Part shown: positions 29,065 to 49,293 of the stretch, in pieces
Layout: each line of letters starts with the position of its first letter
Numbering within the stretch: position 1 is the first letter of the stretch
Made by a program: the position numbers and the translations under genes
NCBI GenBank assembly: GCA_046757665.1
Contig: JBHHYO010000001.1
Coordinates: forward strand, 1-64,000
DNA: 64,000 bases
Direction of reading: 5' to 3'
DNA from: Nitrospinales bacterium
GTDB lineage: Bacteria; Nitrospinota; Nitrospinia; Nitrospinales; JAJDAT01
The notes under the pieces: generated by a model
The model's database searches: none
What the model was told of the DNA's origin: nothing
What the model saw: the letters and a program-made list of their open reading frames with translations, nothing else

Positions 29065-29107
29065 AGTTATTTCTCAAACTCGTCAATCCAAAAAAGTTTC
29101 AAGCCTA

Positions 29108-30070: not shown

Positions 30071-30103
30071 GAGCTTGCAACCGGTCTCGTTGCGCGAAAA
30101 AGA

Positions 30104-30682: not shown

Positions 30683-30784
30683 TTCCCTGGTTTTCCTGCG
30701 GGCACCCTATTCCACTGGGGACAACAAGCCACCGCGAAATCGAATGACCTCGGTCAACCTCTACAGAAATAGTCTGTTTCCGTA

Positions 30785-31330: not shown

Positions 31331-31398
31331 CGATACCGTCGAAATGAACGGAAAATCTTTCCCCAAAGGCTTCTCACTCAATTCCTGGAACTAATTTC

Positions 31399-33582: not shown

Positions 33583-33583
33583 T

Positions 33584-35593
33584 ATGATCGTCCCCGGCTT
33601 GTTTCTCACGGTTGTCATTGGTTATTTGCTGGTGGTTTCGTTAAATCCCTCCTCAGGCGCCGGTGAGCGTCTCAGCCTGTCGGCGCCTTTCGGCCTGGGG
33701 TGTACCACCCTGGTTATTTGGGTTCTGCTTGCGCTTCACCTTCCCCTTTCGCCAACCTCGCTGATGACTGCCCAGATGTCCCTTGCCGCCGGCCTGCTGT
33801 ACCTCGCCTGCCGAACGAAAACCATAGCTCTGTCATCGAGCCGTCCGGTCTTTCCCAAGGTTAATGCGGGTTTGATTCTCATTCTCTTGCTGGTGGGAGC
33901 CGGACTGGTGTTCAATATTTTTTTTCCTATAACCGTGTCCGACGGCATTGGCTATAAAATCCATGGGATCGTTGCGGTGGACAAAAAAAATCTCATGGCT
34001 TTTGAGGACGTCTTGCATATTGGCGACCAAAACAGAACGCTGGGGTTTCAATTAATCTCGGGATTTTTTTATTTGTTTGATTTTGATTACCCCAAGCTGG
34101 TCCAGTCCGTATTCTACGCAAGTATGTTGGGATTCTTTTATGTCTCGATTCGCAAATTCATGGACTCCGGCCCGGCGAGGGGTATGACCCTGCTATTGGC
34201 GACCGCTCCCATGGTTTGGTGGCAATCCTTTTTGTATCTGAACAATCTTTCGTCGGGGGTTTATTTTTTGTGCGGAACTTTATACTGGTTTTTCGCCATT
34301 CATTACAAACAACCGCGCTACATGTTGATTGCATCGTTTGCATTCATGCTTGCCGCCTGGACGAGGTATGAACTCATCGTAATGTATATGATCCCGCTGG
34401 CGTTCACCTTTTTCCTGTCCGCAAAAAACAGGCAGGCCAGGCCTGCTTTATTGCTTTTGATTTTTCCCCTGATTTTTTCGGGCGCATGGGCCGCCCATAG
34501 TTTCGCTTACTACCCTGAAATGAAGCGCTCCGCCCACTATTTTTATATTTTTTTATTTCTGCTTTCGAGCGGCATTATTTTCGGCGTTATTCATGCGTTG
34601 CAGATCAGGCTTCGGCTCGTTATGGGAGCCATAGTTGCCGTTATCGCGTCAGCCGCCGTCTTCGTGATTTTTAATGAGCTTTTTCAGGATAAAATTGTGC
34701 TGTTGCAACGTGTGCTACTGGCCAAACTTCTCAACAATACGATGGTTCAGTGCGTTTGGGGGTTGGGGATTTTGCTGGTATTGCTTGTTCCCGTCTATTA
34801 CAGAGGGTTTCAGCCGGCCCAAAAATACCTGTTGTTCAATTTAATTTCTTTATTCATGGGCTTCACCCTTCTCTTTTCGTTAGTTACCATGGGACACCCC
34901 ATGCTGGACGAACCCGTCGTTGAAAGAATAAAGTTCTTCCTCGAGTTTCCGGGCAGGATTGCGGTGAGAACGTCCAGCCGGGAGTTTTTTATATTATTTC
35001 CTTCCCTGCTGTTCATGTTGGGGACGACGATTTATCAGAGCAATCTGACCTCAAAAGTTGCCCTGTCTTTTAAAAAGTCCTTGTTCAAAAACAGTTTGTT
35101 TAGCGGTCTCAATTGTTTGGTCGTGGGGAATTTGCTTCTGATCTCCGTAGTTTTTCTGATTCCAAGGGCCGTTTTTATGAAAAACCATTTTGGAGAATCT
35201 CATTCCGAGTTGGAGAGAACCGGCGGCCCAAGAGATATTCCCAACCTTTATCAGCCAACATACATTATTGCTCATGCCGTTTCCCGGCATACTCCAGAGG
35301 ACTCCGTTGTTCTTTTCCCCTTTCCCTATGGAGCGCTGACCTTTAAAAAAGAGCCCTATAATTCTCTTGGTTTGTTTGCCGGCGCTGACGCCCTGTATCC
35401 CCGGGTCCTGTTTTGGGGAAAAGCGGAGCTTGACAAAATCAGGAAATCATTTCCAAATAAGCGAATTTACCGAGTGACCTATCCGGGCTGGTTGGACAAT
35501 CAATGCAAAAACCATCCCGATGGAAAATCCCTGGAGTACCATGAATGGTATCTTTGCCCCATTGACGGGCGCAATCTACGCCCTGAGGGATAA
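33584..35593 (+). CDS. Polytopic membrane protein, possible GT-C glycosyltransferase
   Basis: Many TM segments, FPITVSDG loop, AAWTRYE and a soluble C-terminal tail. Confidence 0.55.
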   Translation: MIVPGLFLTVVIGYLLVVSLNPSSGAGERLSLSAPFGLGCTTLVIWVLLALHLPLSPTSLMTAQMSLAAGLLYLACRTKTIALSSSRPVFPKVNAGLILILLLVGAGLVFNIFFPITVSDGIGYKIHGIVAVDKKNLMAFEDVLHIGDQNRTLGFQLISGFFYLFDFDYPKLVQSVFYASMLGFFYVSIRKFMDSGPARGMTLLLATAPMVWWQSFLYLNNLSSGVYFLCGTLYWFFAIHYKQPRYMLIASFAFMLAAWTRYELIVMYMIPLAFTFFLSAKNRQARPALLLLIFPLIFSGAWAAHSFAYYPEMKRSAHYFYIFLFLLSSGIIFGVIHALQIRLRLVMGAIVAVIASAAVFVIFNELFQDKIVLLQRVLLAKLLNNTMVQCVWGLGILLVLLVPVYYRGFQPAQKYLLFNLISLFMGFTLLFSLVTMGHPMLDEPVVERIKFFLEFPGRIAVRTSSREFFILFPSLLFMLGTTIYQSNLTSKVALSFKKSLFKNSLFSGLNCLVVGNLLLISVVFLIPRAVFMKNHFGESHSELERTGGPRDIPNLYQPTYIIAHAVSRHTPEDSVVLFPFPYGALTFKKEPYNSLGLFAGADALYPRVLFWGKAELDKIRKSFPNKRIYRVTYPGWLDNQCKNHPDGKSLEYHEWYLCPIDGRNLRPEG

Positions 35594-35643
35594 CTCAAAC
35601 CCCTCCTCAAGCTTTCGCATTTCGACAGGGTATAAAAAGATTT

Positions 35644-36666
35644 TTAGACGGAAGGATGGGCGGGAGCTTTAAATGCTTCTTTTGCCTCGCGGTAAAGCTG
35701 TTCCCGGCGGTGCGTGTGTTTCGCCGAAAAATGGAAGACCGTCAGGTTTTTTACCGCGGCCATTTTCGCCAGCGTGCCGGCTTGTTTCGAGGTTAAATGG
35801 CACCGCTCCCGGCCACGCTCCTCTTCCTCGGCGAGGAAGGGCGACTCGCAAAAAAACCGGTCCGCGCCGCGAACCAGCTCCACGATTCTTGCGCTGTTCT
35901 CTTTATTGAATACCGTGTCCGTGACATAACCGATCTTTTGCCCGGGAGAAATGAGGACCAAATCCTCCCGCAACTCTCCCAGGGCATATTGCCGGTTCAC
36001 CACTTTCCCGTTGGCGCTTACCGGCACGGACACCAATTCTTCATCCGGCCGCTTTTGGTGGATCATTTGTTTCAGCTCGTTCAACCAGGAGCCGGGAACG
36101 AAGTCCCGGGCATCCAGACGTTCTTTCCGGACATTGACGTGGAACTTCTCGGTCAACGTAAAACCCAGACAAGGCACGCGGTGTTCCAGAATAGCCGCAT
36201 GAACGGCAAACGAAGGCTCGTCCCATAACAGACCCTTCACAAAAGGCTCCCGGCACTCACCGGTTTTTTCAAACCGGTCGACAGCCCGAAACGTTGCCCG
36301 CAACAACTCCTCCTGCCTCACCTCCACCACCTGTAGCGTGATCGACTCCGCATAGCGGTCTACCAGGTTCCAGGTGAATCCCGCCAGTTTCCCCTGCACG
36401 TTGGCGATGAAATTCTCAGGGCCGTATAAACAGATCGTTTTGTTTCGGCCAAAACACACCCGAAGCAACTGGTCGAATCCGATGAAATGGTCGATATGAG
36501 TATGACTGACAAAAACGTGCGTCACATTCAGCAGGGTTTTGTTGGTGATGCGCGACAAATTTCCCAGGTCGAACAACAGGACGCGGCTCTCGTACAAAAA
36601 CTGCACCAGAAGCCCCGGGTCGCCGAACGGATCGTTAACCAGTTTTGGATGAAAAATCGGTTTCAT
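35644..36666 (-). CDS. Ribonuclease Z-like MBL-fold hydrolase
   Basis: PKLVNDPFGDPG, SHTHIDHFIG (HxHxDH), YVTDT, HLT and FHFS. Confidence 0.85.
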   Translation of the reverse strand: MKPIFHPKLVNDPFGDPGLLVQFLYESRVLLFDLGNLSRITNKTLLNVTHVFVSHTHIDHFIGFDQLLRVCFGRNKTICLYGPENFIANVQGKLAGFTWNLVDRYAESITLQVVEVRQEELLRATFRAVDRFEKTGECREPFVKGLLWDEPSFAVHAAILEHRVPCLGFTLTEKFHVNVRKERLDARDFVPGSWLNELKQMIHQKRPDEELVSVPVSANGKVVNRQYALGELREDLVLISPGQKIGYVTDTVFNKENSARIVELVRGADRFFCESPFLAEEEERGRERCHLTSKQAGTLAKMAAVKNLTVFHFSAKHTHRREQLYREAKEAFKAPAHPSV

Positions 36667-36719
36667 AGTCAGTTGACAGTTGGCGGTTGCCAGTTGACGG
36701 TTGTCAACCGCCAACTGCC
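36667..36719. repeat. Heptamer (RGTTGNC) tandem and inverted repeat
   Basis: AGTTGAC AGTTGGC GGTTGCC AGTTGAC GGTTGTC followed by the reverse-type AACCGCC AACTGCC. Confidence 0.7.
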
Positions 36720-37805
36720 TTCAACAAATACGCTTCTATAAATTGGTCCAGGTCGCCGTCCAGGACGGCATCGACGTTGCCGGTTTCCACCTGGGTTCGC
36801 AAATCCTTCACCATGCGGTAGGGATGCAGGACATAAGAACGAATCTGGCTTCCCCATTCGATCTTTTTTTTGTCCTTTTCGAGGCCCTTTATCTCCTCCC
36901 TTTGCTTTTCCTGTTCCAGCTCATACAGCCGGGCTTTCAGGACTTTCAAACAAGACGCCTTGTTTTTGTGTTGCGAGCGCTCGTTCTGGCACTGAACCAC
37001 GATACCGGAGGGGACGTGCGTCATGCGGACGGCGGAGTCGGTCGTATTGACTCCCTGGCCTCCCGGCCCGGACGCCCGGAACACATCGATTTTGAGATCG
37101 GCCTCGAGGATGTCCACCTCGACGTCCTCATCAATTTCCGGATAAACAAACACCGACGCAAAGGAAGTGTGGCGGCGCTTGTTGGCGTCGAAGGGGGAAA
37201 TCCGCACCAGCCGGTGAACGCCGATCTCCGCTTTCAAATAACCGTAGGCATAGTCGCCGGTAAACAGAAGCGTGGCGCTTTTGATCCCGGCTTCCTCGCC
37301 GTATTGCCTGTCCAGAATTTCGGATTTGAACCCGTGCCGCTCGCCCCAGCGGAAATACATGCGCATCAGCATCAAGGCCCAGTCTTGCGACTCGGTGCCG
37401 CCGGCGCCGGAGTTGATCGCCAGAATGGCATTGTTGAAATCGTTGTCGCCGGAGAGCATGGCCTTGAATTCCGCCTCCGCCAGGTTATGCTCGAGAGCGG
37501 TCAGCGAAGATTGTATTTCGGAAATCAGGGACTCCTCGTTTTCCTCCTCGCAGAGGGAGATCATCGCTCCGGCATCCTCGCATTCCTGATGCAGGGACTT
37601 CCAAAGGTTGACGGGGCGTTGGCAGACGGATCGTTGTTGAAGGGTCTTTTTTGCCGCGATGTTATCGTTCCAGAAATCCGGCCGGGAAACCTCCCGGTCC
37701 AAAATCTCCAGCTCTTTCAGCTTGTCGGCAACGTCAAAGATAGCCTCGCAGCCGCTCCACCCGCCGGCTCACATCCTGATATTTTTTCTTCAATTCTTCC
37801 AGCAT
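36704..37805 (-). CDS. prfB: Peptide chain release factor 2 with programmed +1 frameshift
   Basis: ATG 37805 with AAGGAG SD; MLEELKK...RGYL then CTT-TGA-C at 37739-37733. The +1 frame carries SPF and GGQ. Confidence 0.96.
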
Positions 37806-38016
37806 AACGCTCCTTATCGGATAATGGGGAATAGATTCATCGACTCATTGTCTTTAATCCGGGCGCGAATTGCAAGCGGTCAAATCAGGACTTTCGGGCA
37901 GATGGCCATTCCCCGGCTGGGTTAAAATTTATTTGGATTCATCCGAAAATCGTTTAGAATGAACTGTTGAATATAGCAACGGCCGCAATAGACCTGCCGC
38001 ATCGCCCTGGAGCCAG

Positions 38017-39186
38017 ATGAATTTAGCCGCACCCACAAAACCCAAGAAAGAAGCCTCCCCCACCGCAACCCTGTCCAAGAACGGCGGTCAAGGCCCGGTC
38101 AGGGAGATGATCAAGGGTTGGATCAAAAAACTGCCGTTTTTTCTGGAAGCGGATTATTATCGGCGCAAAATTTATGATTCCCCTCTGTTCGATTTTTCCG
38201 TGAAACCCTTGGCCGACACCCTCGCCGAGTGGCCGCGGGCGTTGGTTCTTGACATCACCAACCGATGTAATGCCAAGTGCTCGTGGTGCCCGCAACCGCA
38301 ACTGGAGGATGTCGGCGCCATGAAAATGCCTTTGTACCGAAAAATCATCGACGACTACGCCGTCCGCGGCGGGGTGGTTCATTTCGGTACCTTTGGCGAA
38401 CCGCTGATGGACAAAACGTTCGCGGAAAAAGTCCGCTATTTGAAAAACTATCCTTCCATACAAAAGGTCGAGATGGTCACCAACGCCTTTTTCCTGAATG
38501 AAAAAATCGTTCCGACGCTGATCGAAAACAAAGTGAATGTCGAGATCAGTCTGGACGAGCTGGAAAAGGAGACTTTCGAAGAAATCAAGAAAATGAGTTA
38601 CGATGTTGTGCGCGCCAACATTCTTGAATTTTTGAAGCTCAACGACCGGTCCGCGGAACCGGTCAACGTCAACTTCCGCGTCAAATCATCCCTTTCCAGG
38701 CAACACACGATGGCCCATGAACTGTTCCGCGAACTTGCTTCACATCGTTGCACCATCGAACTCACCCCCATTGACGAGGACAGCATCACCACCTGGGCGG
38801 GCCGGTTCGACAAAATGGCGTTTTATGAAGATCACATGAAAAACACCGCCATCGTAAAAGATCACAACCCCAAGGAGTTCAACAAAACCAACACCGCGCC
38901 CTGCAACCAATTGTGGAAATGGATGGTGGTATACTGGGACGGGAGCGTGGTGCTTTGTTGCGTCGATATGTTTTCCTCCACCATTCTGGGAAACCTGAAC
39001 GACAACACGATCGAGGAAATATGGACGGGGCCCGTGCTCACGCAACTGCGACAAAAAATGATCCAAAGGAAACGCTTTGAAATCCCCATTTGCCAGGACT
39101 GCGACCTCCACCTGAGTTGGCGCTATTTAAAGACCTGCTACAAGCCCGACGGCAGTTTGTCCCATCACTTAAACTTCATCAGTTAA
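38017..39186 (+). CDS. Radical SAM protein with SPASM/twitch domain
   Basis: CNAKCSWC, GEPLMD and PCNQLW...DGSVVLCC...CQDC. Confidence 0.9.
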   Translation: MNLAAPTKPKKEASPTATLSKNGGQGPVREMIKGWIKKLPFFLEADYYRRKIYDSPLFDFSVKPLADTLAEWPRALVLDITNRCNAKCSWCPQPQLEDVGAMKMPLYRKIIDDYAVRGGVVHFGTFGEPLMDKTFAEKVRYLKNYPSIQKVEMVTNAFFLNEKIVPTLIENKVNVEISLDELEKETFEEIKKMSYDVVRANILEFLKLNDRSAEPVNVNFRVKSSLSRQHTMAHELFRELASHRCTIELTPIDEDSITTWAGRFDKMAFYEDHMKNTAIVKDHNPKEFNKTNTAPCNQLWKWMVVYWDGSVVLCCVDMFSSTILGNLNDNTIEEIWTGPVLTQLRQKMIQRKRFEIPICQDCDLHLSWRYLKTCYKPDGSLSHHLNFIS

Positions 39187-39189
39187 ACA

Positions 39190-39957
39190 TTGCTGAAAAA
39201 TTTTCTTAAAGGATTGCTGGCTGGGAAACAAAATCGAGTCGTTGGCCGGTACTATGATTTTGTAAACTCTTTTTCCTCGCTGTCGCCCGAACTTGTATCC
39301 GGTCTTCCGCCGGGAAACAATATCCTGGTGTTCGCCCCGCATTGCGACGACGAGTCGCTGGGTTGCGGCGGGACTCTGCATAAACATCACCTTGAAGGAC
39401 ACAACCTTACTGTGGTATTCATGACCGACGGATCCCAATGCGATTCCGGCGGCCTGGCTAAAGATGAAATCGTTCAGACCAGGATTCAGGAAGCGCGGCG
39501 GGCCGGCGAAATCCTTGGCGTCAATCGTTGTGTTTTTCTCGGCTATCCCGACCGGCGATTGCGGGGGACGGAGGAGATCGCTTCTCGAATCGATGACACC
39601 CTGCAAAAGGTCAAGCCGGACCTGGTCTATCTGCCGTTTTATCTGGACAACCACCCCGACCATATGGAAACGGCGGTCATTTGCCTGGATGCGCTTCGCA
39701 GACGTCCGGTCAAAACCATCTTGTTTTATGAAATTTGGACCACCATGATCCCCAACCAGCTTGTAGACATCACATCGACAATGGAAAAAAAGATGGAGGC
39801 CGTGCGGACTTACCGCTCTCAAAAAGGCATTGATGAGTTCGCGGAAAAAATCAAATCGCTAAACCGCTTTCGATCCCTTCATTCCGGCAATCGGTACCAG
39901 TATAGCGAAGCTTTTTTTAAGTTGAATCTCCAAGACCTGGGTAAAATCCTTTCCTGA
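39190..39957 (+). CDS. PIG-L/LmbE-family N-deacetylase
   Basis: APHCDDESLGCGG, MTDG, HPDH and YRSQ motifs. Confidence 0.9.
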   Translation: MLKNFLKGLLAGKQNRVVGRYYDFVNSFSSLSPELVSGLPPGNNILVFAPHCDDESLGCGGTLHKHHLEGHNLTVVFMTDGSQCDSGGLAKDEIVQTRIQEARRAGEILGVNRCVFLGYPDRRLRGTEEIASRIDDTLQKVKPDLVYLPFYLDNHPDHMETAVICLDALRRRPVKTILFYEIWTTMIPNQLVDITSTMEKKMEAVRTYRSQKGIDEFAEKIKSLNRFRSLHSGNRYQYSEAFFKLNLQDLGKILS

Positions 39958-39961
39958 TCCC

Positions 39962-40483
39962 ATGTTCGAAAAAGTAAAAACCTTGTTGCGTGTCCTTCTT
40001 AAAGGCGGTTTTTACCGCGAACTTTTCAGCAATGGGATCCATTATCTTTATGAGCACATTCTCCCCATGGAGACCCTGGAGATGGGGGGTAATCCGGAAA
40101 TTCACCCTACGGTTTCCTTCCGGTTTGAAAACAACATTGTGCTTGGCGACAATATTGTTTTGGACGCCCACTGTTGTCTGTGGGCCTCGGAAAACTCGAA
40201 AATTACCTTGGGCGATAATACCGGCATCGGCCCCGGCACCGTGGTGGTGTCCTCCAACCACTCTTTCCCAAAAGGCAAAGTTTATGTGGAAGAACCCATG
40301 AGTGAGAAAGATATCGTCGTCGGCAAAAATGTTTGGATCGGGGCGAATTCCACCTTGCTGGCCGGAGCAGAGGTCGGCGACGGATGCGTTATCGGAGCCG
40401 GTTGCGTAATTTCCGGGAAAATCCCCGAAAACTCGGTGGTCGTCAGCGGAAGCCGAAAACTTTCCATCGTCAAGCGGAGGTAA
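39962..40483 (+). CDS. Hexapeptide-repeat acyltransferase
   Basis: SSNH...IVVGKNVWIGANSTLLAGAEVGDGCVIGAG. Confidence 0.87.
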   Translation: MFEKVKTLLRVLLKGGFYRELFSNGIHYLYEHILPMETLEMGGNPEIHPTVSFRFENNIVLGDNIVLDAHCCLWASENSKITLGDNTGIGPGTVVVSSNHSFPKGKVYVEEPMSEKDIVVGKNVWIGANSTLLAGAEVGDGCVIGAGCVISGKIPENSVVVSGSRKLSIVKRR

Positions 40484-40492
40484 CCCGGACTG

Positions 40493-40903
40493 ATGCCCGA
40501 TTTCGATTCCATTCAAGTAGGCGACGAGGCGACTCTCACGCGCACAATCACGGAAAAAGACATACAAGCGTATGCCGCTCTTACCGGCGATGACAACTCA
40601 GTTCATACAAACAAACAATTCGCGGAGCGGACACGGTTCAAGCAACCCATCGCTCATGGCATGTTGACGGCGTCTCTCTTCTCCGCCATTATCGGCACTC
40701 GTCTGCCGGGCCATGGGTCGTTGTATGTCAGCCAGGACTTGAACTTTAAAAATCCCGTCATGGTCGATGATATAATCCAGGCCAAGGTGAAAGTGGTTCA
40801 AAAAGTTGAGAGTACCAAAATGATCGTATTGAAAACCACCGCGTCCAATCAGCGTTCCCAGGTGGTCCTGAGCGGAACCGCCAAGGTTACGTGGGCTTTT
40901 TAA
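40493..40903 (+). CDS. MaoC-family (hot-dog) dehydratase
   Basis: LTGDDNSVH and IAHGML hydratase motifs. Confidence 0.9.
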   Translation: MPDFDSIQVGDEATLTRTITEKDIQAYAALTGDDNSVHTNKQFAERTRFKQPIAHGMLTASLFSAIIGTRLPGHGSLYVSQDLNFKNPVMVDDIIQAKVKVVQKVESTKMIVLKTTASNQRSQVVLSGTAKVTWAF

Positions 40904-40916
40904 CGGAAGAGAAACG

Positions 40917-41669
40917 ATGTTTAATCTGGAAAACGAAATCGCGATTGTCACTGGGGCCAGCCGGGGAATCGGCGCGGATATCGCCGGAACGCTTGCCGGT
41001 CACGGTTGCAAGGTGATCGTCAATTACAATCAGAGCCGGGAAAAAGCCGAGGCGGTTGTTGATGGAATCCGGCAAGCCGGCGGGAAAGCCATACCGTTCA
41101 AGGCAAACGTAACCGAACCGGAGCCGGTTCGGCAAATGGTCGAGGCCGCCGTCCGCGAATTCGGCAACCCTACCATTTTAATCAATAACGCTTCTTCACC
41201 CATGATCCACAAAAAAATTTCCCGGACCGACTGGGATGAGTTCCTTTCCTGTTTTGAAATGGCGGTCAAATCGTCCCACCTGTGTTGCGCCGCGGTTACC
41301 CCCATGATGAAAAAAAGCCGAAAAGGCAAAATCGTCAACGTGGTCACCCAATACTCACGGGGGGTTCCGCCGTTGGCGCTGGCAACCTATGTGACCGCCA
41401 AATACGCCCTGGTTGGGTTTTCAAAAAGCCTGGCGGTGGAACTGGCGCCTTTTGGAATACAAGTCAACATGGTCTCCCCCGGTTTGACGGAAACCGATCT
41501 GGTAAGCGGTTTGCCGGACAGCTTCAAGCAAGCCATTGCTCAACAAACGCCCATGAAAAAAAATGCGACATGCGGCGACGTATCCAAAGCCATTATGTTC
41601 CTGGTGTCCGATCTTTCCGATTTCATTACCGGCGTGAACCTCCCCGTTTGCGGCGGTAACATAATGTGA
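40917..41669 (+). CDS. SDR oxidoreductase (FabG-like)
   Basis: TGASRGIG, NNA, YVTAK and VNMVSPG. Confidence 0.9.
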   Translation: MFNLENEIAIVTGASRGIGADIAGTLAGHGCKVIVNYNQSREKAEAVVDGIRQAGGKAIPFKANVTEPEPVRQMVEAAVREFGNPTILINNASSPMIHKKISRTDWDEFLSCFEMAVKSSHLCCAAVTPMMKKSRKGKIVNVVTQYSRGVPPLALATYVTAKYALVGFSKSLAVELAPFGIQVNMVSPGLTETDLVSGLPDSFKQAIAQQTPMKKNATCGDVSKAIMFLVSDLSDFITGVNLPVCGGNIM

Positions 41670-41670
41670 T

Positions 41671-43428
41671 ATGACCCCATCCGAGCCGAAAGGCCCTTGC
41701 GCCGGCAAGCAACTGAAAGAAACGCGAGTCGCCTTCATCGGCAATATCACCCTTCAACCCGTCCAGTCCCATCTCAGGACACTCTGCCTCGAATTGGGCT
41801 TGAAGCTTGAAATCTTTTTCGGCGGGTACGACTTGTATGTCCAGGAAATAGTTGACCCCCAATCCGGCCTGTACAAATTCAACCCCCATTTCACTTTTCT
41901 CATTCTTGACAATCAAACGCTGTTGCCCGAATTGTATAAAGATTTTTTCAGCATTGAACCCGGACGGAGACTGGAGATGGTCGAAAACAAAATGGGCCAA
42001 CTGCTGGCTCTCGCGGATCAATTTCTTGAACATTCAAATTCCGGCCTGGCGCTCGGCAATTTTCCGTTTCCGCGAAATTACCTGATGGGAATATATGATT
42101 CCAAAACGCCCGCCGGTGAACGGGAAATCCTGCAAAAGATGAATCAAACCCTGATCGATCATGTTCGATCGGTTTCCGGCAGACTCCATGTACTCGATAT
42201 CGAAAAACTGCTTGCCAATTGCGGCAAGACTGCCGCCGCCGATGAGAAGATGCGCTACCTCGCCAAAATGATGATTCCGGCAAAGGTCATGCCGTCTCTG
42301 GCGCGGGAACTCATGCGCTACATCCGTCCGGTGATGGGCATGACTCGAAAATGCCTGGTACTGGACCTGGACAACACATTATGGGGAGGGGTTCTTGGAG
42401 AAGACGGAATAGAAGGCATCAAGCTGGGATTGGAGCCGCCCGGCAATGCCTTTTACGAATTTCAGAAAACGGTGAAATCTCTGCAACACCGCGGCGTACT
42501 TCTCGCCATCAACAGCAAGAACGATCTGGAGTTGGTGCGCGAGGTTTTCCAAAAACATCCCGACATGCAACTCAAACTTGACGATTTTGCCTGTGTCCGG
42601 GCCAATTGGCAGGATAAGGCGCAGAACATGCGGGAAATTGCCGCGGAACTGAACATCGGCCTGGACAGCCTGGTTTTTATGGACGACCATCCCGCGGAGC
42701 GCTTGCTGATCCAGCAAGCGCTACCGGAAATTTTGACGGTGGACATGCCGGAGGATTGCGCGGAGTTTGCCCAAACGCTTCTGGCTCTGGATGCCTTCGA
42801 GGTCCTGCACCTTACCGAGGAGGACAGAAAAAGGAAGCGCCTTTACCGGGCGGAAGCCAAAAGAAAAGAATTGAAACGCCAGGTCACCGACCTCACCCAG
42901 TATCTGCAATCCTTGCGGATCGCCGTGCAGGTTTGCCCGGCGGATCCGTTTTCCATTCCCCGCATTGCCCAGCTAACGCAACGCACCAACCAGTTCAACT
43001 TGACGACCCGAAGATACAATGAAGCCGATATAAAAAAATTCGCCGCATCCCAGGCTCATCGCGTATACTTTCTCAAATCTTCCGACCGCTTCGGCGAACA
43101 CGGCATCGTTGGAGCCTGCATCACCCAAAAGAACGGGAGCGCCGTGGAAATCGACACGCTTCTGTTGAGTTGCCGGGTGATCGGCCGGGGAATCGAACAG
43201 GCTTTTTTGCATTTTGTTTGTAACGAAGCCCGGACGCAGGCCGCGGACAAGCTGGTTGGCCACTACCTGCCGACTCGCAAGAACCGGCTCGCGGAAAATT
43301 TTTATGCCGACGAGAAATTTGATGTCATCCTGCGCTCCGAACAGGAGACGATTTTTGAACTCGATCTCAGGCGAAAGACCGTACCGTTGCCGGCCCATAT
43401 CCGGTTGAATGCCAATTATGGACGATAA
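41671..43428 (+). CDS. FkbH-family HAD-IIIC glyceryl transferase/phosphatase
   Basis: LDLDNTLWGG, SKND, FMDD..ER, RTNQFNLT, DRFGEHG and LLSCRV. Confidence 0.93.
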   Translation: MTPSEPKGPCAGKQLKETRVAFIGNITLQPVQSHLRTLCLELGLKLEIFFGGYDLYVQEIVDPQSGLYKFNPHFTFLILDNQTLLPELYKDFFSIEPGRRLEMVENKMGQLLALADQFLEHSNSGLALGNFPFPRNYLMGIYDSKTPAGEREILQKMNQTLIDHVRSVSGRLHVLDIEKLLANCGKTAAADEKMRYLAKMMIPAKVMPSLARELMRYIRPVMGMTRKCLVLDLDNTLWGGVLGEDGIEGIKLGLEPPGNAFYEFQKTVKSLQHRGVLLAINSKNDLELVREVFQKHPDMQLKLDDFACVRANWQDKAQNMREIAAELNIGLDSLVFMDDHPAERLLIQQALPEILTVDMPEDCAEFAQTLLALDAFEVLHLTEEDRKRKRLYRAEAKRKELKRQVTDLTQYLQSLRIAVQVCPADPFSIPRIAQLTQRTNQFNLTTRRYNEADIKKFAASQAHRVYFLKSSDRFGEHGIVGACITQKNGSAVEIDTLLLSCRVIGRGIEQAFLHFVCNEARTQAADKLVGHYLPTRKNRLAENFYADEKFDVILRSEQETIFELDLRRKTVPLPAHIRLNANYGR

Positions 43429-43642
43429 ATTACGCACCATCCTGGCTCAAGCTATCGATGTGGATGCCGAGGAACTAACCGATGAATCCTCGCCCGACAC
43501 CATGCCGGAATGGGATTCGTTTGCCCACTTGAATATGGTGGCAAGCATCGAACAAGAGTATGGGATCAGTCTCACCCTTGAAGAAGTCATCGAAATGCAG
43601 TCCCTCCCGAAAATCAAGGAAGTCATCGCCCGCAAACTTTAA
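43418..43642 (+). CDS. Acyl carrier protein
   Basis: Acidic 74-aa protein with WDSFAHL phosphopantetheine site; overlaps the FkbH stop. Confidence 0.9.
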   Translation: MDDKLRTILAQAIDVDAEELTDESSPDTMPEWDSFAHLNMVASIEQEYGISLTLEEVIEMQSLPKIKEVIARKL

Positions 43643-43683
43643 ACCTTGCCACCCGGCGGCGCAACGGCCCGGAGGATACTCAA

Positions 43684-44643
43684 ATGGTAATGGACCAACC
43701 CGTTCCGCTTTCCCAGCCGGCGTCTCTCGACTTGTCCATTATCATCGTCAGTTTCAATACGCGGCAGATTCTGCTCGCCTGCCTGGAGTCCGTTTATGCC
43801 CGCACGCGGGACCTGGCGTTTGAGGTTCTGGTGATCGACAACAATTCCGCCGACGGTAGCGCCGACGCGGTAAAAGAGCGTTTCCCATCCGTTGGTCTCA
43901 TCAGAAACCCGGAAAACCGCGGCCTGTCCTCCGCATACAATCAGGGCATAAAGGCGTCCCGCGGCCGGTATCTGGTTTTTCTCAACAGCGATACCATTTT
44001 GACCGAAAACAGTTTTTTGAAAATCGTCCGCTACTTGGACGAACACTCCGAGTTCGGCATCGGCACCCCGCGCATCGTTGACGAAAGTAATGTCGTCAGC
44101 TCCATGCGCTTCCGGCAGGATACTCCCTGGGACGCTCTCCGCAAAATCCTGGGGAAGTATGATGGGGACAAGGAAGCCCGGGAAATGGGCAAGGAAGAAG
44201 CCAAGGAGGTCGAAGCGATCGGCGGCCCCAGTTTTTTTGTGCGCCGGACGCTCCTTGAAACCATCGGCCTGTTCGACGAAAATTATTTTTTGTACAACGA
44301 GGAGGACGACTTTTGCCGCCGCGCCCGTCGCCGCGGCCACAAAGTTCTTTATTATCCGGAAACAACCCTTGTGCATCTCCGCGGCAAAAGCACCCACCTG
44401 CCGCAAATCCGCGAAAAGGTCATCATCGAAACCTACAAGAGCAACTTGTATTTTTACGCCAAGTATTATTCCCCCGCCTGGAACCTGGTTTTAAGGCTTG
44501 CGTACCGGGGCGCCTTCATTCTGGGAATGCTGAAATCCGCGTGGCGTTGCCTCACCGGGCGGCCGCCGCGAACCGCCGACGACTCCATTGCCTTGAAATG
44601 GAAACTTCTCTTTCTGAAAACCCCGAGCGCCAGGCGGAAATAA
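43684..44643 (+). CDS. GT2 glycosyltransferase (WbbL-like)
   Basis: IIIVSFN, IDNNSADGS, FLNSD and FDENYFLYNEEDD. Confidence 0.9.
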   Translation: MVMDQPVPLSQPASLDLSIIIVSFNTRQILLACLESVYARTRDLAFEVLVIDNNSADGSADAVKERFPSVGLIRNPENRGLSSAYNQGIKASRGRYLVFLNSDTILTENSFLKIVRYLDEHSEFGIGTPRIVDESNVVSSMRFRQDTPWDALRKILGKYDGDKEAREMGKEEAKEVEAIGGPSFFVRRTLLETIGLFDENYFLYNEEDDFCRRARRRGHKVLYYPETTLVHLRGKSTHLPQIREKVIIETYKSNLYFYAKYYSPAWNLVLRLAYRGAFILGMLKSAWRCLTGRPPRTADDSIALKWKLLFLKTPSARRK

Positions 44644-44662
44644 CGCGCCGGCCCAGAGCCTG

Positions 44663-44691
44663 TTGACCCTCTCCGCCGGGCGTATTATACT
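44663..44691 (+). promoter_or_regulatory. Putative sigma70 promoter
   Basis: TTGACC (44663-44668), 17 bp, TATACT (44686-44691), about 160 bp upstream of ATG 44851. Confidence 0.55.
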
Positions 44692-44850
44692 TTTCACCGT
44701 TCGATGGAATCGACATTGCACCCGCTCGTCCGGACCTAAAGAAATAGCGCCTCGCAACCGATGATTACGATGTGGGAGGTCGATGATTCTTCCCGTCCTT
44801 GCCTGGAACAGCATTAACCGTCCGTCCAAAACTTAACCAGCGAGCCAAGC

Positions 44851-47034
44851 ATGTCCCTCATGGATTTTCAGTCACTCCCATGCCTTGCGATCGTCATCCT
44901 GATTGCCGTTTTATCTCGTCTGCCGTTCCTGCGCTTTCCCATGGACGAGGACATGGCCACCTTCACCTACCGCGCCCGGTTTGCCGCCAGGGGGTTTGAA
45001 TGGAAACGGGACCTGTTCGTTTTTTATCCGACTTGCCGGATGCGCCTGTTCGACGCATTGTACGGTCGCCCCGGGGGGGGCGTCTTGCGGATCCGCCTTT
45101 TTTTCATGGCGGCTCATATCGTCACTTCCCTGGCGGTTTATTCGGCCATATTCTTTCTGACGGGAAACCCTTTCGCGGCACTGTTTGGTGGAGCGAGCTA
45201 TGCGTTTTTCGCCACGGCGCCCGCGCTGTGCGCGGTTTCGTTCAATTTTGAGCCGTTGTATTTGCCGCTTCTCTTGATCGGCTTGCAACTGCTTTGGCGG
45301 GACATGATTCCCCTGGCCGGAATCTGTTTCGGACTGGCCGTCGTGCTCAAGGTTTCCACGGGGATTTATGTTCCGGTGATGATGCTGTTTGTCGCCCGTC
45401 AATACGGGTACGGAGACTCTCTGCTTTTCATGGTCGCGGCGGCGGCTCCCGGCCTGATCTCGCACGCGCTGGACTGGAGCATGGGCTATCTGGACCAGGA
45501 AGCGAAAAAACAATTCAACCTGCGCCTGGCCGCCACCCTGCGGTGCGCCAAATTGAAACGGATGTATGGAAGCATTTCACAAGACATCCGGTTGACCGTT
45601 AAACAGACCCTGCCCCTGTGGCTTGCCGGCATCCCCGGCCTGGTGATCGCTTCGACGGAAGCGCCTGGCCTTTCCATTTCCCTGTTCGCCGTGCCGACGA
45701 TAGTCATGATCCTTTGCCAGCGCGGGTTTTCCCGGTATCATTACATTCCTTTTATTGGTCTCCTGGCTCTCGGAGCGGGTCCGGCGGTCGATCGGCTTTG
45801 GCGGATGCCGGAACCCGTTGCTTTTGCCGCCGCGGCCTTGCTTGTGGCGGCGACTGTCTGGACGCTCTATCGTCTGGCTCCTTTTTATCTTCGTCCCCTG
45901 GAGGCCGAAACCCTGGCGCGATACGACAAGTTCGACCAGTTCATTTACCTGCCGTACCTGGGGAAAATCCTCAAACGCCTTGTCCGCATCCGCAAGGAAA
46001 CGGATCGCCGGCTTTTTGTTTGGGGAAACTTTATTCAGCTTTATCATGAAACCGGACTCCCCGCCGCCGACCGCTTCGCGCATTACTGCATCGGCCCCTG
46101 GGACAGCCCGGTTCTTGAAGAATATTTCGATACCGTCATCGGCGGACTGATGCGCCACCAGCCGGTTTACCTGGTCAAGGCCTTTCCCGACCTGGACATG
46201 GAGTTGCTGGAGCGAGTCACGGGTCTGCGGTACCGGCTGATCAAGGTGGCATTGGCGCGGTTTCCGATTTATCGGCTGGCGGGTTTCACGCCGCCCGCCG
46301 GCGATCCTCTTGATCTGCCGTGGCGCGAGAAAATGCGCCTGTTCGATGCGCTGACGCAGGGCGAACACGTTCCCGGTATCGACAAGACGGCGGCCGCCGG
46401 ATTGAGCAAGACCCTGAACGAATGCCGAAAGCTGTGCCGGTTGAATCCGCATGACACACAAGGCATGTGGTTTCTCGCGGAATTGCAGGACCGGCTTGGG
46501 CAAGCGGACGCGGCCGCATCCACTTGCGAAAAACTGTTGCACGAAAACCCGTCGGACCCACGGCTTCTGCTACTGCTGGCAAAACAAAAGGTAAAGCAAA
46601 ACCGGCCGGACGAAACGCGGCGCGCCCGGGAAATCTATAACGATATATGGAAACGGCCGATGCGCCCGCATGAGGACGGGCTTCGCACCCAGGCCGCGGT
46701 GGCCGTCGCCGAACTCGACTCCGGGCGGCGTCCCGAAGCGGAGACGCTGGAACGGTTTCTCGCCCGCGACCCGCGCAACGAATCGTTGGCTTACGCGCGC
46801 GCCTCGGCCCTGGAGCGCCGGGGCAATCGCGAGCAGGCGCGCCGTCTGTTCGAACAATTTACCGCCACCTTTACCAAACCCCCGCTTCAGGCGGCGGCGT
46901 GGTTCCGCCTGGCCCGCCTGTCGCCGCCGGAGCAACGCGAACAAATACTCAAGCAATGCCTGAAGCTCGATCCCGCGCATTCCGGCGCGCAAAAACTCCT
47001 GCAAGCTCTGGAGACTTGCCGTGTCGAAGCGTAA
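44851..47034 (+). CDS. GT-C-like membrane protein with C-terminal TPR repeats
   Basis: PMDED acidic loop after TM1, multiple TMs and RYHYIP, followed by helical TPR-like repeats. Confidence 0.65.
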   Translation: MSLMDFQSLPCLAIVILIAVLSRLPFLRFPMDEDMATFTYRARFAARGFEWKRDLFVFYPTCRMRLFDALYGRPGGGVLRIRLFFMAAHIVTSLAVYSAIFFLTGNPFAALFGGASYAFFATAPALCAVSFNFEPLYLPLLLIGLQLLWRDMIPLAGICFGLAVVLKVSTGIYVPVMMLFVARQYGYGDSLLFMVAAAAPGLISHALDWSMGYLDQEAKKQFNLRLAATLRCAKLKRMYGSISQDIRLTVKQTLPLWLAGIPGLVIASTEAPGLSISLFAVPTIVMILCQRGFSRYHYIPFIGLLALGAGPAVDRLWRMPEPVAFAAAALLVAATVWTLYRLAPFYLRPLEAETLARYDKFDQFIYLPYLGKILKRLVRIRKETDRRLFVWGNFIQLYHETGLPAADRFAHYCIGPWDSPVLEEYFDTVIGGLMRHQPVYLVKAFPDLDMELLERVTGLRYRLIKVALARFPIYRLAGFTPPAGDPLDLPWREKMRLFDALTQGEHVPGIDKTAAAGLSKTLNECRKLCRLNPHDTQGMWFLAELQDRLGQADAAASTCEKLLHENPSDPRLLLLLAKQKVKQNRPDETRRAREIYNDIWKRPMRPHEDGLRTQAAVAVAELDSGRRPEAETLERFLARDPRNESLAYARASALERRGNREQARRLFEQFTATFTKPPLQAAAWFRLARLSPPEQREQILKQCLKLDPAHSGAQKLLQALETCRVEA

Positions 47035-49180
47035 GAAAGTCGCCGTCTTCGCCACCGAACCGGTGACCGGAAGACTGGGTGGACTCGGTATTCGCCAGCT
47101 CCAGGTGGCTCGCACCCTTGCAAAATTTTTTGAGGTCCGTCTGTTCACTGAGTACCGGGTGGAACGGCATCGCGAACCTTTTCAAATTCTGCAAATCGAT
47201 TATGAACAATCCCATACCCTGGAAGAACCCGTCCGCTGGGCCGACGTCGTGTATTCCAGCCAGCCGGCGGTTGCCCCGTTCACCAAAAAATTCGGCAAGC
47301 CCGTCGCCGTGGATTTGCTGGTCCATGAGTATTTCGAGGACCTGGAGTTCCTGCCGCTCGAAACAATGGAGCCGCTGGAACAATCCGTTTATTTTTCGGA
47401 CTGCATTTTGCGGCTTTCGCGCCAGTTGGATATGGGCGATTTTTTTCTATGCTCCAACGAGCGGGAGCGGGATTTCTATCTCGGTGTCCTCACTCTTTTG
47501 GGAAAACTGATTCCCGGCACCTATCAAACGGACCCGCAGTTTCGTTTCCTGATCGACGTGGCTCCATTTGGTCTCCCAAAAAGGGAGCCGAAAAAAGGCA
47601 AGAATATTTTACGCGGCGAAATCCCCGGTATCGGCCCCAGGGATTTTCTCATCGTCTGGGGCGGGTCGCTTGCCAACTGGTTCGACAGCCTCACTCCCGT
47701 GCGGGCCATGGCCCGGCTCAAAAAAACATGCCCCAGGGCAAAGCTGGTGTTCGTCGGCAACAAGCATCCCGTCCCGGCGGAACAGCCCTCGGCTTTTCAG
47801 AAAACCGTCAACCTCGCAAAACGCCGCGGCCTTTACGGCAAAAACGTTTTTTTTTACACCGACTGGGTTCCCTACGACCGGCACGATTATTACCTGACCG
47901 AGGCGGACGCCGGAATGGTTGCCTTTCACGATCATCTTGAAAACCACTTTTCGTTTCGCATCCGGGTGGTGGATTACTTTTGGGCGGACCTCCCCGTTTT
48001 AACCAACCCCGGAAATGTGCTGAGCCGTCTTATTGAAAGCAAAAACATGGGGAAGGTTTTTCCGTTTGGGGACGACAAAAGCCTGGCGGAGGCCATCGAA
48101 TGGATGGCGGCCCATCGGGCGGGCTGTCGAAAAATGCGCCAGGACATCGCCCGCGAGAAAAAACAGTTTCACTGGGACCGGGTCCTGGCGCCTCTCATCG
48201 ACTTTTGCCGGTCGCCCCGGAAGGCCGCCACCCTGTTCGACGGCGGCAGACTGCCCGAACTGGAGCAACTGAAAAAACAGCGCCGCTTCACGCCGGAGCA
48301 ACTGTTGCGCCTTGTGCCGTCGCATCCTTACATGCGGCTGATGCTGGCCCGGAAAAGCATCCTGGAAAACAAACCGCAAAAAGCCGCCAGCCTGATAAAC
48401 GACCATTTGCGATTATTTGGCTACGGACTGGAAACCGAATTGTTTCGCCTGCCACTGCTGGACGTGCCGGGCGATTTCACCTACGAGGAAATACTTCGCC
48501 TGGTCCCCTCGCACCCCTACTCGCGGTTGATGAGGGCCAGGCTGAAAATGAACGAAAGCAAGTTTCCGCAGGCCGGAAAACTGATTGAAGAGGAAATCGA
48601 ACTGTTCGGCGAAACCGCCGAGGCCCTGTTCTGCCGCGGACTGCTTCGCCAACGGCTTGGAGAGCATCGAAAGGCAGTGGCGGATTTCGAGAGGGTTCGC
48701 CGGGAAATGCCGGAGCGGATCGACTGCTGGCTTCCCCTGGCCGGCTCGCTGGCGGAATTGGGAGACACCAAGCAGGCCAAAAAACTCTACGCCCAGGCAT
48801 GGAACAAGGCTCAGGGCAGGGGGGGAGAGGGAATCCGCGCCCGCGTCGCGGCGGCCATGGCGAAGCTGGAGGCCCCCCGCAGGCCGGAACATGAAACCTG
48901 GGCGCTCTACGAACAACGCGACCCCTGCAACGAAGCGCTGGCGTATGCACACGCCTCGGCGCTGGAACGCGCCGGAAAAACCGGTGAGGCCCGCTCCCGT
49001 TTCGCATCCTTCACCAAAATTTTCCGGAATGAAAAAATCCGGGCGGGAGCCTGGTTCCGTCTGGCGCGGCTGTCTCCACAAAACCAGCGGGGGAAAATGC
49101 TTCGGGCCGCTTTAAAACTGGACCCCTCGCATTCCGCGGCGCGGGAAATGCTACGGCAATTGCGGAACAACGCGGATTAA
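47021..49180 (+). CDS. GT4-like glycosyltransferase with C-terminal TPR repeats
   Basis: GGLGIR, CSNERERDFYLG, WGGSLANWFD, ENHFSFRIRVVDYFWADLP, followed by a TPR tail. Confidence 0.75.
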   Translation: MSKRKKVAVFATEPVTGRLGGLGIRQLQVARTLAKFFEVRLFTEYRVERHREPFQILQIDYEQSHTLEEPVRWADVVYSSQPAVAPFTKKFGKPVAVDLLVHEYFEDLEFLPLETMEPLEQSVYFSDCILRLSRQLDMGDFFLCSNERERDFYLGVLTLLGKLIPGTYQTDPQFRFLIDVAPFGLPKREPKKGKNILRGEIPGIGPRDFLIVWGGSLANWFDSLTPVRAMARLKKTCPRAKLVFVGNKHPVPAEQPSAFQKTVNLAKRRGLYGKNVFFYTDWVPYDRHDYYLTEADAGMVAFHDHLENHFSFRIRVVDYFWADLPVLTNPGNVLSRLIESKNMGKVFPFGDDKSLAEAIEWMAAHRAGCRKMRQDIAREKKQFHWDRVLAPLIDFCRSPRKAATLFDGGRLPELEQLKKQRRFTPEQLLRLVPSHPYMRLMLARKSILENKPQKAASLINDHLRLFGYGLETELFRLPLLDVPGDFTYEEILRLVPSHPYSRLMRARLKMNESKFPQAGKLIEEEIELFGETAEALFCRGLLRQRLGEHRKAVADFERVRREMPERIDCWLPLAGSLAELGDTKQAKKLYAQAWNKAQGRGGEGIRARVAAAMAKLEAPRRPEHETWALYEQRDPCNEALAYAHASALERAGKTGEARSRFASFTKIFRNEKIRAGAWFRLARLSPQNQRGKMLRAALKLDPSHSAAREMLRQLRNNAD

Positions 49181-49293
49181 CCTCGCGCGAACGAAGCGTT
49201 GTCTCTTCAAGATTCTGTTTTATCCGCCGAAAAGGTTATAATGGCCCGTTCGCCCCTTTTGGGGTCCTCAAGCAATCGACAGAGGAATCGACG

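Follow-up and report, generated by a model that had tools for sequence, protein, structure and literature searches.

Loading modules that combine a dehydratase (DH), a ketoreductase (KR), an FkbH domain and an acyl carrier protein (ACP), in the order DH-KR-FkbH-ACP, reportedly occur in BryA of the bryostatin pathway and in the pathway of FR901464. For the lankacidin module of this type, the accessible part of the source proposes that 1,3-bisphosphoglycerate is converted into pyruvoyl- or lactoyl-ACP (PMC6162330), and the available excerpt on OocJ describes a DH-MT-FkbH-ACP module that includes a methyltransferase (MT) (PMC4552970). In the non-ribosomal peptide synthetase (NRPS) field, the sections at hand propose glycerate loading by the FkbH domain of SuoB, the glycerate ending up in the product, and describe examples in which FkbH-loaded glycerate is methylated and sulfonated (PMC8609519). 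Here we describe a cassette of eight genes in the first 64,000 nucleotides (hereafter, the window) of contig JBHHYO010000001.1 of a Nitrospinales bacterium (assembly GCA_046757665.1), where an FkbH-like loader and an ACP are accompanied by enzymes of sugar modification. The route is known from antibiotic synthesis; judging from the encoded proteins, a glycolysis intermediate is here most likely turned into a carrier-bound C3 acyl group, probably lactyl, that ends up on a surface sugar. We propose, with middling confidence, that the cassette would combine a ketosynthase-less route to a C3 acyl-ACP, in which glyceryl supplied by FkbH would be converted into lactyl by a MaoC dehydratase and a short-chain dehydrogenase/reductase (SDR), with an acyl swap on a sugar, for which a GT2 glycosyltransferase, a PIG-L deacetylase and a hexapeptide acyltransferase would be responsible.

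The exchange of an acyl group on a sugar amine has precedents. In lipid A biosynthesis, LpxC deacetylates a residue of the N-acetylglucosamine (GlcNAc) type and LpxD, a left-handed beta-helix enzyme that uses acyl-ACP, re-acylates the amine; in teicoplanin biosynthesis, a PIG-L-family deacetylase is likewise followed by an acyltransferase. As for the acyl groups themselves, the consulted part of one source lists amide-linked lactyl groups as rare, with reports on Rha4N, Fuc3N and Pse, and glyceric acid amides on Qui4N (PMC9912281). For the N-glyceroyl pseudaminic acid of Tannerella forsythia, the accessible text speaks of the underlying genetics as "a major challenge" that was open in 2017 (PMC5378307). 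Furthermore, dimethylglyceric-acid forms of pseudaminic acid are missing from a strain whose cj1302, an fkbH-domain gene of the Campylobacter jejuni flagellin glycosylation locus, is a pseudogene (PMC7099621); cj1302 resembles the cassette in being an FkbH-domain gene within a glycan-modification locus, and in the available portion of that source the link is a passing correlation. It was the only glycan mention of FkbH found in the open-access literature, as far as its accessible texts go, the other papers listed being mostly about polyketides or peptides, and no description of the eight-gene cassette was found there.

The cassette consists of eight co-directional open reading frames (ORFs) on the plus strand, from 38017 to 44643 (6.6 kb), whose Pfam matches all exceed the gathering score. 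The features, with lengths in amino acids (aa), are the following:

38017..39186, plus strand: radical S-adenosylmethionine (SAM) enzyme with a SPASM/twitch C-terminal domain, 389 aa (Pfam Radical_SAM 50.9 bits, SPASM 58.3 bits)
39190..39957, plus strand: PIG-L/LmbE-family zinc de-N-acetylase, 255 aa (Pfam PIG-L 110.7 bits)
39962..40483, plus strand: left-handed beta-helix (hexapeptide) acyltransferase, 173 aa (Pfam Hexapep 50.2 bits)
40493..40903, plus strand: MaoC/PhaJ-type (R)-specific hydratase/dehydratase, single hotdog, 136 aa (Pfam MaoC_dehydratas 85 bits)
40917..41669, plus strand: classical SDR, FabG-like reductase, 250 aa (Pfam adh_short / adh_short_C2, 177.3 bits)
41671..43428, plus strand: long-form FkbH-like loader, 585 aa (FkbH_N 53.6 bits; NCBIfam TIGR01686 325.1 bits)
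43409..43642, plus strand: dedicated ACP, 77 aa from the first ATG (Pfam PP-binding 26.6 bits)
43684..44643, plus strand: GT2 glycosyltransferase, 319 aa (Pfam Glycos_transf_2 95.3 bits)
37703..38016, no strand: intergenic stretch from which prfB and the first cassette gene diverge, the presumed promoter region

From 5' to 3', the ORFs are separated by 3, 4, 9, 13 and 1 nucleotides, an overlap of 20 nucleotides and a gap of 41 nucleotides. The packed run of these eight families, which a previous sequence-only reading had named, is borne out by Pfam, NCBIfam and motif comparisons. Apart from FkbH, none of the seven other proteins reaches a named NCBIfam equivalog. That reading had also stated that no ketosynthase accompanies the run, and it was right in this respect: a scan of 31 ORFs from 16174 to 52188 found none, and the PF00109 and PF08541 matches of the genome all lie on contigs other than that of the cassette. 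Within the assembly (2.97 Mb in 160 contigs, the closest FkbH relatives carrying Nitrospinota/Nitrospina names), FkbH, PIG-L and MaoC (counting matches above the cut-off) occur in one copy each, and all three copies are found within these 6.6 kb, a clustering which is more than expected by chance. An AcpS-type phosphopantetheinyl transferase is encoded on contig C15 of the same genome.

The FkbH protein belongs to the family TIGR01686, whose match spans residues 225-548 and scores well above the curated cut-off of 146.65 bits (327 bits in the genome search), and both the HAD motifs and the cysteine of the transfer domain are present. These motifs are DLDNT (232-236), K316, DD (338-339) and C501, and 12 diverse homologues all keep residues D232, D234, T236, S282, K316, D338, D339 and C501; C501, found in the context L-S-C-R-V-I-G-R-G, is the residue that we take to be the carrier of the acyl intermediate. 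In an AlphaFold2 model built from 12 sequences (mean pLDDT 82.2), Foldseek matched the N-terminal pair of domains to 3SLR, a structure titled "N-terminal part of BF1531 containing phosphatase domain" that is a sequence match too, and residues ~410-585 to many GNAT acetyltransferases (TM-scores on target of 0.65-0.76). As modelled, the protein is composed of an FkbH_N domain, a HAD-IIIC phosphatase domain and a GNAT-fold C-terminal domain with the conserved cysteine. C501 would be placed where GNATs bind the pantetheine-pyrophosphate of coenzyme A (CoA), which fits a domain that offers its acyl-Cys to the holo-ACP arm. In a few homologues FkbH_N resembles GDSL hydrolases; a conserved serine is lacking at the corresponding position, and the domain is probably non-catalytic in this protein. 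Most Nitrospinota orthologues (734-764 aa) carry in addition an N-terminal TPR region of ~170 aa that is absent from the 585-aa protein described here. By analogy with characterised FkbH systems, the long form would load glycerate onto the ACP. The latter bears Ser37 in a W-D-S motif, with W35, S37, E48 and E59 invariant in 14 sequences, and comparison with its orthologues suggests that translation starts at the second ATG (43418).

The two enzymes that would act on the loaded unit are also well defined at the family level. MaoC scores 85 bits against a Pfam MaoC_dehydratas cut-off of 27 bits, carries the Asp and His of the hydratase-2 motif and has as its closest relatives in the PDB the PhaJ proteins 5CPG (E 2.1e-26) and 1IQ6 (E 6.7e-26); its stretch G-D33-D-N-S-V-H38 aligns with the same stretch (G-D-x-N-x-x-H) in both, D33 and H38 being presumably the catalytic residues. 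In turn, the SDR presents the motifs TGASRGIG (residues 12-19; TGxxxGxG) and YVTAK (Y158xxxK162), and its top PDB matches are FabG proteins; since it scores 180.6 bits against the cut-off of 297.75 bits of the FabG equivalog TIGR01830, it should be considered a classical SDR and not FabG proper.

On the sugar side, the deacetylase is a member of the PIG-L/LmbE family (Pfam cut-off 28.2 bits) with the metal-binding motifs PHCDD (50-54) and HPDH (155-158). Among the NCBIfam models BshB1 scores best (104.8 bits; cut-off 182.5), and the protein stays below the cut-offs of BshB1, BshB2, MshB and Mca, being therefore a member of none of them; the nearest PDB relatives of the deacetylase are diacetylchitobiose deacetylase, an LmbE-related protein and BshB, all of them GlcNAc-type de-N-acetylases. 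The hexapeptide enzyme is the candidate, from its family, for the final acyl transfer. It matches the WxcM-like sugar N-acetyltransferase 4MZU (E 7e-14) about as well as maltose and galactoside O-acetyltransferases (E 2e-13 to 7e-13) in the PDB, its top NCBIfam matches are galactoside and maltose O-acetyltransferases and WbbJ, and the similarity to LpxD (E 3.6e-8 in NCBIfam, 1e-6 in the PDB) covers only the terminal hexapeptide turns. His100, nearly invariant in 14 sequences, may be catalytic. A complex prediction with three copies of this enzyme and the ACP, run without controls, scored 0.00 and speaks neither for nor against an interaction.

The radical-SAM protein belongs to the Radical SAM/SPASM-twitch group, with a CX3CX2C motif (C84, C88, C91) and seven further cysteines, among which C296, C314, C315, C359, C362 and C374 fit a Cys-rich C-terminal SPASM domain. 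BtrN, a radical dehydrogenase of an aminocyclitol, is one of its only two sequence relatives in the PDB (E 4e-11 over ~100 residues, 77-172), the other being MoaA; no NCBIfam equivalog is reached, and a protein-cluster search gave generic radical-SAM/SPASM clusters only.

Taken together, these assignments would fit the following sequence of events. FkbH would react with 1,3-bisphosphoglycerate to form a phosphoglyceryl thioester on Cys501, the HAD domain would remove the phosphate, and the glyceryl group would be handed over to the phosphopantetheine arm of the cassette's own ACP, which the GNAT-fold domain of FkbH would hold. Such chemistry is known for the FkbH family, and the long form would follow it. 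Glyceryl-ACP, being a 3-hydroxyacyl thioester, is a compound from which a PhaJ-type dehydratase could remove water; MaoC would thus strip the C3 hydroxyl to yield 2-hydroxyacryloyl-ACP, whose tautomer is pyruvoyl-ACP, and reduction by the SDR, of the keto form or of the enol C=C alike, would give lactyl-ACP. Meanwhile, GT2 would add a sugar of the N-acetyl-hexosamine type to a growing glycan and PIG-L would remove its N-acetyl group. In what is the weakest step of the scheme, the hexapeptide acyltransferase would then move lactyl from the ACP to the freed amine, leaving an N-lactyl sugar. The radical-SAM/SPASM enzyme might add a further tailoring step, possibly an oxidation like that of BtrN.

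Compared with the loading modules of trans-acyltransferase polyketide synthases (PKSs), the cassette has the FkbH loader, the carrier protein, the dehydratase and the reductase of DH-KR-FkbH-ACP. However, its proteins are separate, no ketosynthase follows, FkbH carries the extra FkbH_N domain, the dehydratase is a single-hotdog MaoC/PhaJ protein (MaoC_dehydratas) instead of a PS-DH/PKS-type DH, and the genes alongside encode a glycosyltransferase, a sugar deacetylase and an acyltransferase. By its composition, the cassette would work like such a module without being a member of that class. It also shares with FkbH/OzmB-type glyceryl-ACP formation and with SuoB the TIGR01686 domain, the HAD motifs, the conserved cysteine and the adjacent dedicated ACP; unlike the methoxymalonyl-ACP and tetronate pathways, it has neither FkbI/FkbK/FkbG-type partners for oxidation or methylation nor an assembly line, and the acyl group, destined for a polyketide or a peptide in the FkbH/OzmB and SuoB pathways, would be destined here for a glycan. 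A methoxymalonyl-ACP pathway was accordingly rejected, given that Pfam finds neither an acyl-CoA-dehydrogenase-like nor an O-methyltransferase partner in the cassette. As in the LpxC/LpxD and teicoplanin logic, a zinc deacetylase would precede re-acylation of the amine; unlike LpxC/LpxD, the deacetylase is of the PIG-L type, the beta-helix enzyme is weakly similar to LpxD and the C3 acyl group would come from a private pathway. A Dlt-like export route through an MBOAT protein was also discarded: no MBOAT is present among the scanned ORFs of the window, and the single PF03062 match of the genome lies on contig C43.

A lack of co-occurrence of the genes in other genomes would, in the sequence-only reading's own terms, have refuted it; the eight families are found together in nine further Nitrospinota loci, in three gene orders, so that no refutation came from this side. 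Among 120 Nitrospinota genomes searched, 21 have an FkbH-like gene, and orthologues with at least 55% identity are present in seven besides the source genome. When the ORFs of 20 regions of up to 20 kb around the Nitrospinota FkbH matches were searched with the proteins of the window, all eight families appeared in nine of them (L112-L120, from eight genomes). The order of the window is seen in L112 and L113, whereas L114-L118 have radical SAM-hexapeptide-ACP-PIG-L-MaoC-SDR-FkbH-GT2, and L119 and L120 have GT2-radical SAM-hexapeptide-MaoC-SDR-FkbH-ACP-PIG-L. The adjoining GT2 scores 362-406 bits as an orthologue in L112-L118 and is more distantly related in L119 and L120 (129 bits); as in the window, prfB and MBL-fold neighbours flank six of the nine loci. 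Reduced versions exist as well: two regions (L122, L123) have only MaoC-SDR-FkbH-ACP, two others (L125, L130) have a fused MaoC-SDR protein beside FkbH, according to Pfam, and L131 has MaoC, FkbH and ACP, the remaining six regions being without MaoC. Counting the window, both PIG-L and the radical-SAM enzyme are kept in 10 of 10 Nitrospinota cassettes, and it is the conserved set of PIG-L, beta-helix enzyme, GT2 and radical-SAM/SPASM enzyme that sets this cassette apart.

In one of these loci, L118 (G013:C41, 1620-2803), two overlapping ORFs make up a split radical-SAM gene, and additional DNA lies between it and the acyltransferase gene. The split gene may be a pseudogene and, if so, the radical-SAM step would be dispensable there.

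Beyond Nitrospinota, the FkbH family is very large (at least 7,999 homologues, since 7,999 of 8,000 scored candidates have E <= 1e-10), and 593 loci were confirmed, with one genome per species. Neighbours were counted in the 80 loci most similar to the query, so that the shares given below are not those of the whole family; L002-L004 and L006 appear, from their identical scores, to be the same as L114, L115, L113 and L119 and were not double-counted. Within 5 kb of FkbH, an ACP is present in 73 of the 80 loci, and the coordinates indicate that several of the seven others are apparently cut by a contig end. At the same distance, 26 loci have a MaoC domain, 19 an SDR and 14 both, the two being encoded in one ORF in nine of these 14, in the order MaoC-then-SDR in all five that were checked with Pfam, which is the order of the DH-KR-FkbH-ACP modules. 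MaoC stands without an SDR in 12 of the 26 loci, mostly from archaea and Patescibacteria, and an SDR without MaoC in five. On a FastTree phylogeny of 80 FkbH proteins, from which L074 (FkbH ORF below 450 aa) was left out, the presence of MaoC changes 16 times, at least 10 of these changes being forced by well-supported branches, so that the association recurs across the family and was not inherited once, even if losses of MaoC are over-counted where contig ends hide neighbours. A MaoC/SDR/FkbH/ACP core that is spread over many phyla, often with MaoC and SDR fused, is what would be expected if both enzymes act on the FkbH/ACP product.

The other neighbours in these loci include, within 5 kb of FkbH, hexapeptide acyltransferases (20 loci), PIG-L proteins (5) and radical-SAM enzymes (5), and furthermore AcpS-type transferases (12), FemAB-like GNATs (10), GT4 enzymes, and UDP-sugar dehydrogenases and epimerases, as well as NodB-type polysaccharide deacetylases, unrelated to PIG-L, that form two BLAST clusters of 7 and 5 loci, possibly overlapping. 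Polysaccharide biosynthesis is, in sum, the general context of the long-form FkbH.

Natural fusions tell a similar story. They were surveyed among query-matching proteins longer than 1,024 aa, taking the best 120 of 311 at E <= 1e-30, and selected ones were checked with Pfam. An AAC(3)-like N-acetyltransferase, MaoC and FkbH share one chain in P0190 and P0198, and P0187 joins a FemAB-like GNAT, an AAC(3)-like domain and FkbH. P0184 has the composition FkbH-ACP-thioesterase-GT2 and P0212 GT4-FkbH-ACP-thioesterase, P0192 combines a PKS-type DH, an FkbM methyltransferase, FkbH and ACP, and P0121 is a giant protein with an FkbH-like part and radical-SAM/SPASM. Moreover, nine FkbH-GNAT chains are found among the 120 best of 311 in precomputed Pfam annotation, with another in L059, ACP-GNAT chains are present in L031 and L078, and FkbH-MBOAT fusions occur among the long proteins listed. 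FkbH is in this way linked to two unrelated dehydratase folds, to amine-acylating enzymes, to glycosyltransferases and to radical-SAM/SPASM, functions that the cassette encodes in separate genes.

Three kinds of protein recurring at these loci deserve a mention in their own right. A conserved protein of ~376 aa directly follows FkbH-ACP in 15 of 77 loci, in Acidobacteriota (e.g., L072:9989-11119); it has no Pfam or NCBIfam family, just as a further protein of 657 aa has no NCBIfam family, and it is a candidate for the acyl-ACP transferase of the Acidobacteriota variant. Proteins with the VOC/glyoxalase fold lie beside FkbH-ACP in 11 loci (e.g., L037:5407-5844), and one is fused to FkbH in P0060; as this fold includes thioester epimerases, the VOC protein may decide which configuration the acyl group has at C2. 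Finally, sulfotransferases occur near FkbH-ACP in clusters of 9 and 7 loci (e.g., L024:11288-12160, L060:4608-5675), and one is found in the window at 28970-30070, together with genes for the synthesis of 3'-phosphoadenosine 5'-phosphosulfate (PAPS). Given that FkbH-loaded glycerate is sulfonated in the NRPS examples, sulfated hydroxy-acyl decorations of glycans are conceivable.

The idea put forward by the sequence-only reading, that stand-alone enzymes build a C3 acyl-ACP and that the acyl group is then swapped onto a sugar amine, therefore fares differently in its two halves. The carrier-bound C3 part is well supported by the recurrence of the core and by the MaoC-SDR fusions; the swap part is plausible, the glycan amine being indirectly supported by the retention of PIG-L throughout the Nitrospinota cassettes and by the fusions of FkbH with N-acetyltransferase-type domains and glycosyltransferases. 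The same C3 acyl-ACP could nevertheless end as an ester, transferred by the hexapeptide enzyme to a sugar hydroxyl while PIG-L independently leaves a free amine of the GlcN type. We consider this outcome unlikely, if worth keeping in view. The top NCBIfam matches of the hexapeptide enzyme are O-acetyltransferases, those in the PDB score as well as 4MZU, His100, being conserved, would suit the role of general base if the nucleophile is an alcohol, and the FkbH-ACP-thioesterase and FkbH-MBOAT fusions suggest ester formation in other variants; conversely, the retention of PIG-L in ten Nitrospinota cassettes, whatever their gene order among the three, suggests that its role is coupled, a second deacetylase family recurs near FkbH-ACP (the clusters of 7 and 5 loci), and the AAC(3)-like and GNAT domains fused to FkbH speak for amine acceptors.

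Two further readings change the substrate or the product. MaoC and SDR might supply a separate short acyl group, e.g., (R)-3-hydroxybutyryl from crotonyl- or acetoacetyl-thioesters, while FkbH and the ACP give unmodified glyceryl, so that two decorations would be made. MaoC is indeed about as close to the short-chain enzyme PhaJ as 136 aa allow (E 2e-26), the best matches of the SDR are 3-oxoacyl reductases, and N-glyceroyl sugars exist, as stated in the accessible parts of PMC5378307 and PMC9912281. Yet MaoC-SDR fusions adjoin FkbH-ACP in several phyla, MaoC and FkbH share one polypeptide in P0190 and P0198, a PKS-type DH of unrelated fold is fused to FkbH-ACP too (P0192, and OocJ in the available excerpt of PMC4552970), the cassette has no ketosynthase or thiolase and no second MaoC match above the cut-off was found in the genome, all of which makes a double decoration quite improbable. 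Even less credit can be given to a small soluble glycoside as the product, i.e., a low-molecular-weight thiol or solute akin to bacillithiol or mycothiol instead of a polymer decoration. In the biosynthesis of these thiols a glycosyltransferase acts first, followed by a PIG-L deacetylase and by acylation of the amine; the set GT2-PIG-L-acyltransferase mirrors this BshA-BshB-BshC logic, and BshB1 is the best NCBIfam match of the PIG-L protein, but with a score far under the cut-off. The cassette, in addition, lies within ~40 kb of glycan-type genes, FkbH relatives are fused to polymer-type GT2 and GT4 enzymes, and the distribution in the phylum is patchy (21 of 120 genomes with an FkbH-like gene), unlike that of a core redox buffer.

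Several observations also weigh against the scheme that we favour, a C3 acyl-ACP passed as lactyl to a sugar amine. No assayed enzyme was found for the long-form FkbH with FkbH_N, and its sole solved relative, 3SLR, is labelled uncharacterized. PhaJ, the nearest characterised relative of MaoC, acts on C4-C6 enoyl-CoA, and the nearest characterised relatives of the SDR use 3-oxoacyl-ACP, not 2-oxoacyl substrates; the loci with MaoC only or SDR only imply, besides, that the pair is not obligatory. For the hexapeptide enzyme, the nearest relatives take acetyl-CoA as donor, O-acetyltransferases make up half of them and LpxD, which depends on ACP, matches weakly; it is possible that this enzyme transfers acetyl groups and is unrelated to the ACP. 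Since PIG-L adjoins FkbH only in the Nitrospinota cassettes and in one other locus among the 80, the swap is not general in the family. The scheme does not specify the acceptor sugar, and the radical-SAM enzyme, conserved in every Nitrospinota cassette, is yet without a role in it.

The genomic setting of the cassette is consistently one of glycan biosynthesis, with glycosyltransferases, sugar-nucleotide enzymes, sulfotransferases and methyltransferases over ~40 kb. The ~20 kb upstream encode sugar-nucleotide enzymes, glycosyltransferases, a methyltransferase, a B12-radical-SAM enzyme, a sulfotransferase and sulfate-activation genes, and downstream follow glycosyltransferases with TPR regions, such regions being present in the three large proteins encoded there. 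Immediately upstream, on the minus strand, are prfB (36704-37702; PCRF and RF-1 in Pfam) and an MBL-fold gene; prfB interrupts the glycan region, and a 368-aa ORF that overlaps it on the opposite strand has no family and is probably spurious. In a promoter and terminator scan, counts were close to the shuffled expectation and nothing promoter-like stood out in 37703..38016, and an Rfam scan of 30000-50000 gave zero matches. Among the sulfate-activation genes, a 727-aa ORF (31399-33582, plus strand) joins a pyruvate-kinase barrel (residues 4-312), a PUA-like domain and an ATP-sulfurylase domain, and adjoins the adenosine 5'-phosphosulfate (APS) kinase and sulfotransferase genes; we know of no described fusion of this kind. 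Between the sulfate-activation genes and the MBL-fold gene lies a 669-aa ORF (33584-35593, plus strand) with no Pfam or NCBIfam match, a weak relative of which (125 bits) occupies the same position in L112.

FkbH-ACP cassettes range from Nitrospinota to ammonia-oxidising and Asgard archaea. We tentatively suggest, as a possibility rather than an expectation, that such cassettes, with or without MaoC and SDR, are a general and unrecognised source of N-glyceroyl, N-pyruvoyl and N-lactyl groups on prokaryotic surface glycans, of which the eight-gene version of Nitrospinota would be a complete, radical-SAM-tailored unit leading from N-acetyl-hexosamine to the lactyl sugar. If this were true, a carrier-protein route fed by glycolysis would explain the amide-linked glyceroyl and lactyl groups found on bacterial sugars, and a simple genomic predictor would follow: FkbH-ACP alone would indicate glyceroyl, the addition of MaoC pyruvoyl, and that of both MaoC and SDR lactyl. 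Radical-SAM/SPASM chemistry on a C3 acyl group or on the sugar that bears it would, in turn, be without described precedent. Furthermore, a loading chemistry regarded as belonging to polyketides would prove to be much more widespread, with a place in the biosynthesis of the cell envelope.

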